Below are positions 2,622 through 27,246 of a stretch of 27,935 nucleotides of DNA, piece by piece. Position 1 is the first letter of the stretch; each line of letters starts with the position of its first letter. The DNA lies in UHGV virus genome UHGV-2167857, one strand, 5' to 3'. The position numbers were made by a program, and so were the translations under genes. Below the pieces are notes generated by a model. It made no database searches. It was not told the DNA's origin and was given only the letters and a program-made list of their open reading frames with translations. The stretch is from a virus.

Positions 2622-2718
2622 GATTGTGCTCCTGTGTAAGTTCAGGGCAGTATGTCGGGAGAAGCGCGTGACGGATATTAAAGGAGATTAAGAAGAAGGG
2701 GCCGGAGCCCCTGTGATG

Positions 2719-7419: not shown

Positions 7420-8535
7420 TTACAGGCAGCGTGCGACAGCAGCCTCATAGCTGATGCCTTCTTTTTTGGACAGGGCCACTGCTTTCTGATGCAGGGCCAG
7501 ACGCTCAGGATCGGCTTCCGCAAACTCTGCCACATCCACCTTCACCGTGTCGCCGACACGCTCTTTTGTGGCCTGTTCGGCGAAATTCATCACCGGCTCC
7601 CCGTCGGAGAGCAATGAACGAAAGGCGGTGGCCAGCGGTGTGCGGCTTTCCCCCTCAGCAAACTCCACCGGCTTGTCGCCACCGGCGACGGCATCCAGCA
7701 GGGCAACCACCACGGAGGAGGCGCGGGGAGCCAGACGGCCCTCTGCGACCAGTTTTTCTGCAAAGGCCACATTGTCCTTATGCAGTTGCTCCTGTCTGAC
7801 CTGTGCATCACGCGCATCGCGATCAGCAGCCTGCTGCTTCAGGCGGCGGTTCTCCTCCTGAAGGGTTTCAATCTCTTCTTTTGTCATCGATGATTCCTCG
7901 TTACTTGCGGAAGACGGCCCCGGGCCTGTCTCACTGAATTGTGCACCTGCTGCATCCTGCGACAGTGTGTCGCGGTACGCCTCTTCGCGCAGACTGTTGA
8001 GCTGCCATTCCGGCAGGACTTTTTCTGCCTCGTCCAGACTGAAGCGGGCGATCAGAAAATCGCGCAGCTTTCCCCACAGGGAGGCATTCGTGATGGCCTG
8101 CCAGTCGGCGAACTCCACCACACCTTCTTCCTGCTCACTGAAGGACACCTGTTTCAGCCCCTTGATGGAAGGTGGCTGTGCCCCGAGAAAGCCCACATGG
8201 CGAAGGTAGAGCACGCCGGGCTTCGGATTGGACGGTGAATCCGGGAGGTAGAAAGAGGCGGACACTTTTTTGAATCGTCCGTCGGTGACCATCTCAGCAA
8301 ACTGCGGGTCCAGCTGGGCAGGCTCTGCCATCAGATCGACGCCGCTGAGCGACAGGGCTTTCACCCAGCCCCACGCCGGGTCTTCCGTTCTGGGATGACC
8401 AATCACGAGTGGTGCTTCATGGACGGACGGGTCATAGGCTTTCACGCAGGCGGCAAGATCGTCTGGCGTGAACGGCAGTTTTTTGCCGTGCATATCGGTA
8501 TGAGTACCGGCTTTAAAAATGTGAATGGCTGACAT
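7420..8535 (-). CDS. Head maturation protease/scaffold (Mu I-like; nested Z-type scaffold possible)
   Basis: 371 aa with a Glu/Ala-rich coiled-coil C-terminal half, immediately upstream of the major head gene. Confidence 0.75.
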   Translation of the reverse strand: MSAIHIFKAGTHTDMHGKKLPFTPDDLAACVKAYDPSVHEAPLVIGHPRTEDPAWGWVKALSLSGVDLMAEPAQLDPQFAEMVTDGRFKKVSASFYLPDSPSNPKPGVLYLRHVGFLGAQPPSIKGLKQVSFSEQEEGVVEFADWQAITNASLWGKLRDFLIARFSLDEAEKVLPEWQLNSLREEAYRDTLSQDAAGAQFSETGPGPSSASNEESSMTKEEIETLQEENRRLKQQAADRDARDAQVRQEQLHKDNVAFAEKLVAEGRLAPRASSVVVALLDAVAGGDKPVEFAEGESRTPLATAFRSLLSDGEPVMNFAEQATKERVGDTVKVDVAEFAEADPERLALHQKAVALSKKEGISYEAAVARCL

Positions 8536-8660
8536 TTTGCTGTCCCGCGTTATGTTGTCGGAGACAGTTTGTGAGAAATGCAGGCCCGGCGATTTTAATC
8601 TGCTTTAGAAAACATCAGGGGAGAAGGACAGGGAAAGCAATGCGGTGAACCGGAGGCGGT

Positions 8661-8706
8661 TATAAAACAGAGGCTGTAAAGCCTTTATAAAGGTAATACA
8701 GCCCCT
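8661..8706 (-). terminator. Terminator-like hairpin downstream of gene G
   Basis: On the minus strand: 10-bp stem (AGGGGCUGUA / UACAGCCUCU, one G-U) around an 18-nt loop containing the perfect palindrome CCTTTATAAAGG, followed by UGUUUUAU. Confidence 0.4.
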
Positions 8707-8749
8707 CATTCTCTGGCAATGATAAATCACCCGCCTGAAGAGAGAAAAC

Positions 8750-9208
8750 TCAGCGACGGGCCGCTGATTCAAGATGGCGGACAATGGTATCGAGGATGGG
8801 GATTACCACTTCAGGCTGTAGTTCTCCATCCCCCGTCACCGGCAGGAACGGGCGGGCCGGAAGTTCAACAGACTCATTACGCCCCGTTTTACCCCCGAAC
8901 TGGTGAATGGCACCGTAAACAACGTTGGTCCCCACAACAGCCTGCCGGTCGTCATGGTCGGTTGATACTGACCCCATCAGACGCCCGGTATCCTGCAGTG
9001 TCTGCCCGTCACGTTCTTCCGCTGCCAGCGAGGGCATCCACCCCGGACGCCCCTCATCAAGAAAGTTAAACTGTGTTTCCGCCAGCAGGGTTCCGGCGAT
9101 TTTGCGCATCGCGGGCTCCAGGTCTGTGGCAGCAAGATCCAGCGCACGGAGGCTCCGGCGCAGGGATTTATCGTTAATGGTGATACTGACCAGGTTATCG
9201 GAAGCCAT
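8750..9208 (-). CDS. Virion morphogenesis protein (Mu G-like)
   Basis: 152-aa ORF between the F-like and I-like genes; start directly follows the F stop. Confidence 0.7.
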   Translation of the reverse strand: MASDNLVSITINDKSLRRSLRALDLAATDLEPAMRKIAGTLLAETQFNFLDEGRPGWMPSLAAEERDGQTLQDTGRLMGSVSTDHDDRQAVVGTNVVYGAIHQFGGKTGRNESVELPARPFLPVTGDGELQPEVVIPILDTIVRHLESAARR

Positions 9209-16007: not shown

Positions 16008-16137
16008 GTGTGTCTCCTTATCTGGTGGAGACAGCATCACAAATACAGGGCGCGAAGGATTTTAAAGCGCGTTAAGAGAGCCGGGGATACGGGATGTGCA
16101 GGATAAACGATGAATTATTCACAGAGGAGAATACGAT
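16008..16137. promoter_or_regulatory. Divergent intergenic region: probable late-operon promoter (leftward) and promoter of the P-loop gene (rightward)
   Basis: 130-bp non-coding gap between two divergent genes with good SDs; the only sizeable non-coding DNA at the head of the late operon. Confidence 0.35.
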
Positions 16138-16614
16138 ATGACGCACACACTGAATCCGGTCATCACTGTCACTGTGTCCGGTCCTGTGGGCAGCGGTAAA
16201 AGTTACGTACTGGCGCGGATAGAAGAGATGGTGAAACAGGAACTCGGAAACAGCGTCATTGTCGATGCTGCTGACGTGGAGAATGAGCGCCGTATGAATG
16301 GCGAAGATCTGACGACCTGGCAGAAGCCACGGGGTGGCACAGTGATCAGGCTAGAGGAATACACGGGACAGGGCCTGTTGTCATACGGCGAGGAGCGTAT
16401 CTGTCGGACGAATGAGCTGCTGGATGTTATATGCCCCACGGGCCGGCAACCCTGGATACTGCCCGATGCACTGCATGCCACCATTGCGGCACTGATGACA
16501 GTTTACGATCAGGAGCTGCTCATGAAGGAGTTACGTAAACTCACCGGTCAGCCAACAGAATGTTGTTCGTCTCCGAAGTACGGCAAACAGGAAAACGCCC
16601 CGGATAATCCTTAA
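16138..16614 (+). CDS. Small P-loop protein of unknown function
   Basis: Strong SD (GAGGAG) before the ATG; Walker A-like GPVGSGKS at residues 15-22, then a hhhhD-like stretch SVIVDAAD about 20 residues later. Confidence 0.5.
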   Translation: MTHTLNPVITVTVSGPVGSGKSYVLARIEEMVKQELGNSVIVDAADVENERRMNGEDLTTWQKPRGGTVIRLEEYTGQGLLSYGEERICRTNELLDVICPTGRQPWILPDALHATIAALMTVYDQELLMKELRKLTGQPTECCSSPKYGKQENAPDNP

Positions 16615-17323: not shown

Positions 17324-18310
17324 CTATTTAAGAATAAAACGGTATTTACTGTCAGGAGTGCTTTGCTGATCAAGTAGCAGTGAACGACATGGAGCAGTCA
17401 AAACCCGAGCATAACTACCATCAGGGCTTATGTTAATGTAACAAACCTTGCCCTTAACACTATAATTTTCGGGGACGGATGCCTTTGCTGATACAGTAAA
17501 TTTAAGGGTATGCCAGCCCGTTTTTTGCTTGTAGCTTGAAACCGAATGGAAATCATCTGAGTACTTATTTAACCCTGGAAACATGCTGCGCAGTGCGGGG
17601 ATGGAATCTTCTATTATTTTATTGTTGGTTTTAATGTTAAAAACGCTGGTTTCAGTAGAAGCTACTGCTTTGGCATTTCCCCATTTACCAGCGAACACAA
17701 TCATTCCCACGAAAAATATTGCTACAAGAACTAACACTCCCCCCAACACTACTACATGAGGCTTCCGGCTTCTGGTTGGTACAGTTGCGACTGATTTTGC
17801 ACCGCTTTCCGATGGAGGTGATAGAGTTTTACTCTCATCACGAATATTCAGCAGATCATCAAAATAACCAAACACAGCCTGCAACTGCTCTTTGTCTAGG
17901 CCTTTAAGATGGGTTGTACCGAAATGCTTCAGACAGTATCTGTCACGGTCAAGACGATACCCAGGGTCAGTAAGCGCCATTATTTTGCTGACCAGAAGAT
18001 TACAGTCCTTCATATTCTGGATCTGTTGTGCATATCTCTGAAGGATCTCAACCGCACCATGATAATCAGCCGCAGTCATTTCATTAACTGTTTTGGTATT
18101 AAGTTTCGTGTGGATCGTCATCCATAGCTCGCGCTTACTTTCCCCCAGATCAACCAATTCATCCATCAATCTGTGTAAATCGCGTTTTTGCAGCAACGAA
18201 ATTGGTTGCTGGGCCGAAGGAAGTATGTCAGCAGAATAGTTATGAATGGTAACATCACCGCTGACAACGTTACCCACATCCCCGTTAACTGTTTGCTTCT
18301 CTTTACTCAT
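17324..18310 (-). CDS. Bitopic membrane protein, unknown function (cargo; N-in/C-out predicted)
   Basis: 328 aa; start ATGA-overlaps the repressor stop. N-terminal soluble domain of about 175 aa, one TM (HVVVLGGVLVLVAIFFVGMIVFAGKW) with basic residues before it, then a C-terminal domain of about 125 aa; AT-rich. Confidence 0.5.
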   Translation of the reverse strand: MSKEKQTVNGDVGNVVSGDVTIHNYSADILPSAQQPISLLQKRDLHRLMDELVDLGESKRELWMTIHTKLNTKTVNEMTAADYHGAVEILQRYAQQIQNMKDCNLLVSKIMALTDPGYRLDRDRYCLKHFGTTHLKGLDKEQLQAVFGYFDDLLNIRDESKTLSPPSESGAKSVATVPTRSRKPHVVVLGGVLVLVAIFFVGMIVFAGKWGNAKAVASTETSVFNIKTNNKIIEDSIPALRSMFPGLNKYSDDFHSVSSYKQKTGWHTLKFTVSAKASVPENYSVKGKVCYINISPDGSYARVLTAPCRSLLLDQQSTPDSKYRFILK

Positions 18311-26282: not shown

Positions 26283-26724
26283 ACAACGTCTTATCCAGCT
26301 CATTCATATTGCCCGTAATGAACTGGGTATGGATGAAGACACCTACCGCCAGATGTTACAGGGGCTGACCGGTAAAGCCTCAACCAAAGGAATGGATACC
26401 ACACAACTAAACTGCGTGCTGGAATCCATGAAAAGGAAAGGCTTTCGCGTTAAGCCTGCCGGAAAAGCCAGCTCCGGTTTACCGCTGGATAACCATCCGC
26501 AGTCCAGGAAAATCCGTGCGCTATGGCTTGAAATGGCTGCTGCCGGCATTGTTCGTGACCGTTCAGAAAATGCATTAGCGCGGTGGATCAAGCGGGAAAC
26601 GGGCATCAGCGCCCTGCGCTGGCTCAATACTGAACAGGCAAGCAGTGTTATTGAGAAACTGAAGAAGTGGCAGCACAGAGCTGCGGGAGTAAAACATGAG
26701 CGACCTGAATCAGTTTCGAAGTAA
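26272..26724 (+). CDS. gemA: GemA-like protein (Mu gp16 family)
   Basis: Start at ATG 26272 with AAGGAG upstream. LIQLIHIARNELGMDEDTYRQMLQGLTGKASTKGM matches the GemA/gp16 N-terminal signature as I recall it. Confidence 0.7.
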   Translation: MMTKQRLIQLIHIARNELGMDEDTYRQMLQGLTGKASTKGMDTTQLNCVLESMKRKGFRVKPAGKASSGLPLDNHPQSRKIRALWLEMAAAGIVRDRSENALARWIKRETGISALRWLNTEQASSVIEKLKKWQHRAAGVKHERPESVSK

Positions 26725-27085
26725 AGGGCCGGAACTCCTGGTGGAACTGGCACAGCATACCTCTGAGACCGTTCGCGAGATTATTGATATTGAGCCCGCA
26801 ATTGCCGACCAGATTGGTCAGGCCGTCGCGAACCGCATGATGCAGGTCTGGGGCGGGCAAAACGTTTATTTCCCGATGGGCATGGTATGGAAGGTCAGTC
26901 AGCGCGACCGGGAAATCTTCAGGGAGTTTAACGGACGTAACCACCATGAACTGGCCCGCAAATTTGGTGTTTCGCTTCAGTGGGTCTACAGCGTGGTTAA
27001 GCGGGTAAGAAAAGAAGAACTGGATCGGATGCAGGGCAAGCTATTTGCTGATGAACCCGATGTAGATACGGAGAAAAAAGAGTAA
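26696..27085 (+). CDS. mor: Mor-like transcriptional activator (Mor/C family)
   Basis: 129 aa; C-terminal HTH (REFNGRNHHELARKFGVSLQWVYSVVKRVRK) resembles Mu Mor; last gene of the early operon. Confidence 0.75.
   Translation: MSDLNQFRSKGPELLVELAQHTSETVREIIDIEPAIADQIGQAVANRMMQVWGGQNVYFPMGMVWKVSQRDREIFREFNGRNHHELARKFGVSLQWVYSVVKRVRKEELDRMQGKLFADEPDVDTEKKE

Positions 27086-27246
<161 letters not shown>

Follow-up and report, generated by a model that had tools for sequence, protein, structure and literature searches.

The viral genome UHGV-2167857, all 27,935 nucleotides of which are referred to here as the window, carries the greater part of a Mu-like transposable prophage, the late genes of which run on the minus strand. 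The homologues of the Mu genes G and I are separated by 214 bp (positions 8536–8749), the largest intergenic gap of the prophage's late region. This gap is probably the central cis-acting control region of a BcepMu-type prophage, built like the G–I interval of phage Mu: from G to I on the minus strand it presents a putative gyrase cleavage core, a hairpin with a palindrome, a variable spacer, a promoter core and a leader hairpin. It is thus a further example of an arrangement already known from Mu, and the residual novelty is a widely conserved element, TTTATAAA, at the hairpin centre. An earlier sequence-only reading gave the extent and non-coding character of the gap exactly; it missed the central strong gyrase site (SGS), which is the best-documented function of the Mu G–I interval and of whose cut-site core the window holds a candidate counterpart in both position and sequence. 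The elements of the gap are as follows.

8715–8740, minus strand: island 1, cTTCAGGCGGGTGATTTATCATTGCC, candidate cleavage core of a strong gyrase site (by conservation, match to the Mu core and position)
8664–8712, minus strand: terminator-like hairpin, with a 10-bp outer stem (8706–8697 / 8678–8669) and the inner palindrome
8682–8693: perfect palindrome CCTTTATAAAGG, at the hairpin tip; single copy in the window
8626–8660, minus strand: hypervariable spacer of about 35 bp, with the lowest conservation and indels; empty here
8590–8625, minus strand: candidate Mor-dependent late promoter P_I, with CCCC at 8621–8618, core TTTTCTAAAGCAGATTAAAA at 8612–8593 and −10 TAAAAT at 8597–8592
8540–8567, minus strand: leader hairpin, CTGTCTCCG...CGGGACAG, adjoining the ribosome-binding region of I and kept in all lineages

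Conservation and the candidate gyrase site

The anatomy of the gap, its conservation and central position, the match to the Mu core, the recurrence of the promoter core and the cargo of relatives were computed here. The window lineage is represented by 63 related loci, which reduce to 25 unique gap versions. A diverse set, gathered with an I-protein profile from which Mu-type sequences were excluded, holds 60 unique gaps from phages with I proteins 44–99% identical to that of the window. For phylogenetic footprinting seven diverged lineages were aligned, in which G is 75–100% and I 72–100% identical. At least six of the seven agree only in the four islands listed below, with diverged sequence between them, and it is these invariant islands that make the gap more than a chance feature (the fold of the whole gap has a z-score of −2.4).

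8735–8723, minus strand: GGCGGGTGATTTA, identical in at least six of seven lineages, with diverged flanks
8693–8682: the palindrome, identical in at least six of seven
8612–8593, minus strand: TTTTCTAAAGCAGATTAAAA, identical in at least six of seven
8561–8533, minus strand: leader and start of I, identical in at least six of seven

In the Mu sequence (AF083977) the G stop codon lies at 17859, the gyrase cut site at 17879^17880 (20 nt past the G stop), a predicted terminator at 17908–17953, the C-dependent late promoter PI at 17977–18043 and the start of I at 18056. The window has the same slot and the same order of elements (over 214 bp, against 196 bp in Mu) near the genome centre; the predicted cut falls at 0.494 of the prophage length, as measured on the 37,511-bp EBJ003 copy, compared with 0.487 in Mu. 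The predicted 4-bp stagger, GATT, occupies positions 8728–8725, 21–25 nt past the G stop. Outside short motifs the two sequences are unrelated.

Within island 1, which reads caGGCGGGTGATTTatc, the window core TCAGGCGGGT^GATT^TATC (carets mark cuts) aligns with the Mu cut site. Sutormin et al. (PMC6379681) give the 133-bp fragment of the Mu SGS in their supplement; it includes ctgtGCGGGTGATTTtatgcc, and register with the symmetric consensus of the same authors places the cut at GGGT^GATT. The 11-mer GCGGGTGATTT matches the cloned Mu SGS at 11 of 11 positions and AF083977 at ten. Read in the same orientation, Mu has aaTCAGGCataa^AATC^agcc where the window has ctTCAGGCgggt^GATT^tatc, so that the staggered tetranucleotide is equally far from a shared TCAGGC in both. 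The corresponding gap of an O157:H7 Mu-like prophage carries cTTCAGGCgcgtgtcgtGATTttct, with the core as ctTCAGGCgcgtgtcgt^GATT^ttct in the window orientation and the same TCAGGC register but 5 extra nt; since the Mu core is oppositely oriented, core orientation varies even among Mu-type elements. By inspection, other lineages have a conserved island of their own with Y^GATN, 29–39 bp upstream of TTTATAAA. When the I-side arm is set against the AT/GC phasing that the published consensus for gyrase shows, the correlation (r = 0.37; 0.34 for the right arm of Mu, which is essential there) lies in the top 0.2% of prophage positions and peaks exactly at the predicted centre.

In Mu the SGS has a central position close to G and I, and such sites are present in Mu-like prophages (PMC10052514, PMC2628397, PMC3820752), where they are located between the G and I homologues (PMC2628397). 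The ends of the Mu prophage depend on the site for synapsis in good time (PMC10052514, PMC2628397, PMC3820752, PMC2837660), and the Sakai prophage site alone is reported to substitute for it (PMC10052514). The window resembles these prophages in having its core between G and I; it is BcepMu-type, whereas they are Mu-type, its early region is inverted relative to that of Mu and its putative gyrase site is predicted from sequence. Work by Morgan in 2002 and by Oram and Pato in 2004 reportedly described central gyrase sites in the Mu-like prophages of E. coli O157:H7 Sakai, FluMu and others. Island 1 is syntenic with an annotated cut site, lies centrally, has the Mu register and is conserved as an island; taken together, these four points lead us to regard it as the likely, though far from certain, cleavage core of a strong gyrase site, and such a central site is probably the main reason why the gap is conserved and non-coding.

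Probable terminator, candidate late promoter and accessory slot

The hairpin at 8712–8664 extends from +14 to +62 relative to the predicted cut and so falls inside the I-side arm of the putative gyrase site. The sequence-only reading had called it a terminator-like hairpin on the coding strand, built around a perfect palindrome, and both fold and T-run bear this out: its folding energy is −20.9 kcal/mol around CCTTTATAAAGG (z = −3.9, a stability that none of 200 shuffles reached), and after it comes TGTTTTAT (8669–8662), giving the U-run UGUUUUAU. A terminator pattern scan flags only the inner 5-bp stem (8684–8671). Mu has its predicted terminator at the equivalent place in the G–I gap and, like the window, a hairpin whose T(n)A(n) tract stands some 39 bp from the cut. 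To judge from fold and tract, the hairpin is probably the intrinsic terminator of the lysis-to-G transcript. Elsewhere in the window a clean intrinsic terminator, GGGGCTCCGGCCCC-TTCTTCTT (2711–2691, minus strand), directly precedes the candidate tail-operon promoter, whose −35 region is taken up by the 3′ arm of the terminator.

A late promoter upstream of I, as in Mu, had been suggested from the sequence; it remains plausible, given the Mu order of elements and a core that recurs at two other late-operon starts. The architecture TTAA-N6-TTAAWAT-C is found at three such starts, both in the window and in Klebsiella phage KP12:

the gap, minus strand: candidate late promoter core CTAAAGCAGATTAAAATCG
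16059–16075, minus strand: candidate late promoter core TTAACGCGCTTTAAAATCC, upstream of the holin gene; kept in KP12
2675–2693, minus strand: candidate late promoter core TTAATCTCCTTTAATATCC, upstream of the tail gene at 2621; kept in KP12

The latter two look like counterparts of Mu Plys and PP, and the window holds no further full copy of the P_I core. The CCCC box of P_I lies exactly 20 nt upstream of the −10, the spacing of ATAAYCCC in Mu Plys, PI and PP, so that window P_I and Mu PI share a −10 plus a C-rich box 20 nt upstream; CTCCCCTGATG in the P_I region resembles ATAACCCCAGAT of Mu PI. By inspection there is no −35, the sequence 17 bp upstream (CCCTGA) being a poor match, and a generic scan found no σ70 promoter on this strand. 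A P_I-like motif, TAAA(G/C)-N3-5-(G)ATTAAAA, stands 37–77 nt upstream of I in 49 of the 60 diverse relatives. We infer a transcription start near 8585. The likely activator is the product of the Mor family gene at 26696–27085 on the plus strand (PF08765, E 1.3e-43): the window phage has this one Mor-family gene where Mu has a Mor-plus-C cascade. No regulatory feature is annotated in the gap in the RefSeq, PhiKM and KP12 records inspected.

Two observations on relatives touch this promoter. The gap of the O157:H7 Mu-like prophage (L183:1795–1835) contains TTTAACGGGCTTTAAAATC, near-identical to the lysis-promoter core of the window, some 10–30 bp beyond its SGS-like GATT. In two distant relatives a Mor-family gene lies directly upstream of I and replaces the non-coding gap (L053:2856–3869 and L051:3291–3917; PF08765, E 6.6e-14 and 2.8e-4, respectively); in L053 it is followed by TTTTTCTAAATTGC, which is P_I core-like.

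The leader hairpin folds no more stably than shuffled sequence (z = 0.1). The holin leader (16008–16040, minus strand) has an analogous hairpin, with TGTCTCC...GGAGACA; in both leaders the hairpin begins with CTGTCTCC and overlaps or adjoins the Shine–Dalgarno region. The two may represent a shared translational or stability control of late mRNAs.

The earlier reading had proposed that the interval is an empty accessory site. This stands for the roughly 35-bp spacer (8660–8626), which is a cargo site and is empty here; it does not stand for most of the interval, which is conserved cis sequence. An 801-bp query spanning the gap matched at 80% or more in one place in 629 E. coli genomes, and no E. 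coli insertion was seen among the full-length matches sampled across the ranking, 59 of 59 of which span 800–801 bp. Nor is there cargo in the gaps of relatives with an I gene at least 63% identical, these gaps measuring 190–216 bp. Alignment of the G–I intervals of relatives for inserted open reading frames (ORFs), as the earlier reading had suggested, did reveal cargo in seven of the 60 unique gaps; these are 373–1043 bp long and belong to phages with I proteins 46–61% identical (best match):

L232:594–1406 and L262:591–1403: 270-aa protein
L213:935–1366: 143-aa protein
L220:943–1353, minus (opposite) strand: 136-aa membrane-like protein
L234:1130–1375: 81-aa DUF2158 protein
L230:1037–1267 and L233:1085–1309: 74–76-aa lipoprotein-like proteins

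In L213, L232, L234 and L262 an insert of 0.25–0.8 kb lies between the palindrome, 76–78 bp past the G stop, and the I-side region. The P_I-like motif is kept beside I in L213, L220, L232 and L262 and was not found in L234. L220 has its palindrome 306 nt from the G stop, and L230 and L233 show neither landmark. Because the inserts of most cargo-bearing relatives lie between the palindrome and the P_I-like motif, the hypervariable spacer is taken as a genuine cargo site. Searches of the cargo ORFs against Pfam, PHROGs and PADLOC, none of them an anti-CRISPR-specific library, gave the single DUF2158 match in L234. The cargo ORFs are candidates for anti-defence or lysogenic-conversion genes.

The statement that anti-CRISPR (acr) genes occupy this slot in Mu-like Pseudomonas phages is correct: PMC3993853 places them between G and the protease/scaffold gene. 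Genes 35–36 of JBD30 have this position, with inverted repeats GGCACAnTGTGCC upstream. The genomic slot of the acr–aca locus in JBD30 and the D3112 group is identical to that of the window, and distant window relatives carry cargo there. The JBD30 repeats are the Aca1 operators. JBD30 lacks TTTATAAA, while the window gap contains neither an acr or aca ORF nor JBD30-like Aca-type repeats, and nothing links the slot to anti-CRISPR function in the window lineage.

The palindromic element and competing explanations

By itself the palindrome is not improbable, a 12-mer palindrome with at most two mismatches arising in 46 of 100 shuffles. It is, however, the core of a wider element, (GTAAAGCC)-TTTATAAA-GGCTTTAC, centred 39 bp from the predicted cut. 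Conservation of the palindrome among relatives, a check named in the sequence-only reading, is strict: it is invariant in all 25 unique gaps of the window lineage, in addition to its identity in at least six of the seven diverged lineages. TTTATAAAGGCTTTAC also occurs in the G–I gap of Burkholderia phage BcepMu, where an upstream GTAAAG completes a 24-bp inverted repeat, and, inverted, in the Mu-type relative L090. TTTATAAA is present in the gaps of Pseudomonas phages B3, JBD67 and JBD25, and Xanthomonadales-type relatives keep CGCGTTATAACGCG. Overall, TTTATAAA is found in 47 of the 60 unique gaps, compared with three occurrences in 222 kb of flanking coding DNA, and its centre lies 52–53, 62, 76–78, 86–87 or 95–97 bp past the G stop. 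By inspection it is 29–39 bp from the Y^GATN islands, and the gyrase consensus has AT-rich patches at +29.5 and +38.5. The spacing between palindrome and P_I (64–105 bp) falls loosely near multiples of 10.5; with a scatter of ±3 bp and lineages that are not independent, we make no claim of helical phasing. The window holds no further copy of the palindrome, including at the early operator region and the other late promoters. The TTTATAAA element may serve as a determinant within the gyrase arm, as a cargo promoter or as an operator. We propose tentatively, and at well below even odds, that GTAAAGCC-TTTATAAA-GGCTTTAC is an undescribed sequence-specific cis element marking the centre of BcepMu-, B3- and some D3112-type phages, which may either position gyrase or act as an insulated promoter or boundary defining the cargo slot beside the gyrase site.

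Several observations weigh against the assignment of a gyrase site, terminator and Mor-dependent promoter. The 11-mer, which is the longest match to Mu, runs the other way round there with respect to G and I. Matches to the Mu core at 10 or more of 11 positions number three in the prophage against 0.8 expected, so the core match alone is modestly significant. The phasing score is not locally unique, comparable values occurring nearby in a local scan, and the correlation is therefore weak evidence. The spacing between core and palindrome is 39 bp here and 29–30 bp in the L037 type. A gyrase score based on the consensus only was discarded, its positive control having failed (the true Mu SGS ranked about 900th of 73,170 positions). 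Oram and Pato in 2004 reportedly found the central site of the Mu-like prophage of S. Typhi CT18 to be cleaved by gyrase and not to support Mu replication, in which case not every such central site would be strong. The terminator is not maintained: in KP12-type relatives CGCTTTGC replaces the U-run, L037 and L038 lack the outer stem, and most distant lineages keep TTTATAAA without a U-run. In most relatives the −10 of P_I is TAAAAG, without the final T, and no clear activator dyad is seen at −43.5 of P_I, a region that is variable among relatives.

On another view the gap is a terminator and a late promoter with no special gyrase site, island 1 and the palindrome being kept for RNA 3′-end formation or stability. 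A stable hairpin with a T-run, the clean terminator that also precedes the tail-operon promoter and the modest statistics of the core match would all suit it. Yet structure alone fails to explain the conservation, because U-run and outer stem are lost in relatives while the palindrome is untouched: TTTATAAA is invariant among phages with different stems and often different T-runs, a constancy that a hairpin loop does not require. Island 1, moreover, lies outside the hairpin, and coincidence would have to account both for the position at the genome centre and for the register shared with the Mu cut site. We consider this explanation unlikely. A coding function is highly improbable, whether for a small protein or a small RNA. 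A 34-codon ATG frame, the only ORF noted in the sequence-only reading, is present, nested in a 59-codon TTG frame (8605–8784); no coding sequence is annotated in the gap in the RefSeq or PhiKM records, but the KP12 record lists a 41-aa hypothetical ORF there, and the stop-codon position is common to relatives. The frame was nevertheless rejected as a gene since it is not conserved among the 25 unique gaps, the ATG being CTG in the KP12 type and 1-nt indels breaking the frame; conservation falls in islands and is not codon-like. Its translation had no match in a PHROG search, and an Rfam scan of the whole window matched no family.

The palindrome invites two further explanations. It might be an operator beside an empty anti-CRISPR or accessory slot, read by a helix-turn-helix (HTH) regulator of the phage (repressor, Ner-like or Mor) or by a host nucleoid protein. 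The slot is indeed the acr position of Mu-like Pseudomonas phages, relatives do carry cargo in it, the phage encodes several HTH proteins, and a perfect dyad conserved in sequence is what a dimeric binding site would be expected to show. However, the window lacks acr and aca ORFs and JBD30-like repeats, and the cargo proteins, bar the one with DUF2158, have no acr, defence or known-function matches. The palindrome is also kept across enterobacterial, Burkholderia and Pseudomonas phages despite their differing repressors, which indicates a host-conserved or structural reader; by inspection, palindrome and core are poor fits to the IHF and Fis consensus sequences, and the early operator region, like the rest of the window, has no second copy of the palindrome. 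An operator of this kind is decidedly unlikely. A somewhat better case, doubtful all the same, can be made for a late-class promoter element, with GTAAAG upstream and, after 4–5 nt, T-TATAAA as the −10, that drives cargo in relatives; two tandem promoter-like copies would then bracket an emptied cargo slot and island 1 would be an activator site, not a gyrase core. In relatives GTAAAGGCTT-TATAAA does share the architecture of P_I (CTAAAGCAGAT-TAAAAT), same-strand cargo ORFs begin about 21–52 nt downstream of the palindrome, cargo lies between palindrome and P_I motif in L213, L220, L232 and L262, and in an L227-type relative TATAAA is preceded, at a distance of 21 nt, by CACACCCCAGAAG, which resembles the Mu C box ATAACCCCAGAT. 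Against this, the conserved arm of the window lineage (GGCTTTAC) makes GTAAAGCC-TT-TATAAA read towards G and not towards I, TATAAA lacks the final T of a −10, and the island centre is near −47.5 here and −38.5 in the L037 type where a fixed −43.5 would be expected. TTTATAAA is absent from the other late promoters of the window, the cargo ORF of L220 is on the opposite strand, L234 lacks the P_I motif by regular-expression search and L230 and L233 lack both landmarks.

Mu Pm offers a precedent for that promoter, its early-transcript terminator doubling as the Mor-binding dyad AAAGCCGG-TTAAT-CCGGCTTT (PMC4287176). Like Pm, the relatives of the window have a transcript-end hairpin with half-sites AAAGCC...GGCTTT (in full, GTAAAGCC-TTTATAAA-GGCTTTAC) upstream of a promoter here predicted to depend on a Mor-family protein. 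Unlike Pm, they have no conserved −10 about 32 bp downstream of the palindrome centre, the conserved promoter being some 90 bp distant. The likeness may reflect no more than the A-tract/stem/T-tract shape that bidirectional terminators generally have.

Prophage context and significance

The window DNA shares 99.8% identity with Escherichia phage PhiKM (Bcepmuvirus) and 82% with Klebsiella phage KP12, and an equivalent prophage was found in 638 of 5426 complete E. coli genomes. The prophage is a BcepMu-type transposable element of about 37.5 kb. The genes flanking the gap are as follows.

8750–9208, minus strand: G homologue (virion morphogenesis / Neck1; PF05069, E 4.9e-23; phrog_26; RefSeq WP_000135514), its stop codon (8752–8750) forming the gap boundary
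7420–8535, minus strand: I homologue (head maturation protease / scaffold; phrog_976, E 8.5e-163), with its ATG at 8535–8533

The I homologue shares 48.5% identity with the BcepMu equivalent of Mu I (gp32/gp33 region), and portal, F, capsid and Gp27 homologues surround the pair. According to its RefSeq annotation, the copy in IAI39 (L004) has the BcepMu-type layout, with an early operon (transposase, B-like ATPase, Gam and one Mor family gene) directed to one end and the lysis, head and tail genes directed to the other. This copy has internal stops in three late genes (those for a DUF3486 small terminase-like protein, a tail protein and a gp25-like protein) and is located within lambdoid prophage remnants; on both grounds it is probably defective. 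The EBJ003 copy interrupts gcd with a 5–6 bp target duplication.

In the window the prophage ends at 27246 (...TCTAATCA; ...CTCAAGTCTAATCA; junction 27246/27247), where it abuts a class II fructose-bisphosphatase (glpX-type) gene, as mapped against intact glpX; the gene is uninterrupted in other strains and is therefore disrupted by this copy. The end region (27150–27246, plus strand) contains repeated ATGGGAAGA-like motifs (TTATGGGAAGAACTGGGTCAAAATGGGAAGAGACC in reverse complement), candidate transposase-binding sites. A 158-aa ORF at 16138–16614 (plus strand), annotated in RefSeq as 'ABC transporter ATPase' with a weak AAA_30 match only, lies between the immunity region and the lysis genes, is transcribed against the direction of the late genes and has the look of a moron.

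How the gap might work can be sketched by analogy with Mu; gyrase cleavage, termination, the transcription start and Mor dependence are here inferred. Gyrase acting at the putative core (8740–8715) would supercoil the prophage processively into a loop with the site at its apex, as the Mu SGS does, and looping would bring both prophage ends together for transpososome assembly after induction. The hairpin (8712–8664) would probably stop the lysis-to-G transcript, and its invariant centre TTTATAAA would lie within the DNA arm that gyrase wraps. The free spacer (8660–8626) would be the point at which cargo enters in some distant relatives. Beyond it, the promoter at about 8625–8590, with a −10 and no −35, would restart late transcription at I with the single Mor-family activator, and the leader hairpin (8567–8540) would stand beside the I ribosome-binding site.

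This assignment would explain both the non-coding state and the constant length of the interval. About 12% of complete E. coli genomes, ST131 and other clinical lineages among them, carry a prophage of this family, and the putative gyrase site, terminator and Mor-dependent promoter supply testable coordinates for end synapsis and for the switching on of head genes. The spacer of about 35 bp indicates where accessory genes are tolerated, among them the anti-CRISPRs of Pseudomonas relatives. If TTTATAAA does position gyrase, strong gyrase sites would become recognizable by sequence across hosts, giving a sequence handle on gyrase-site strength, a question that goes back to the work on the Mu SGS.

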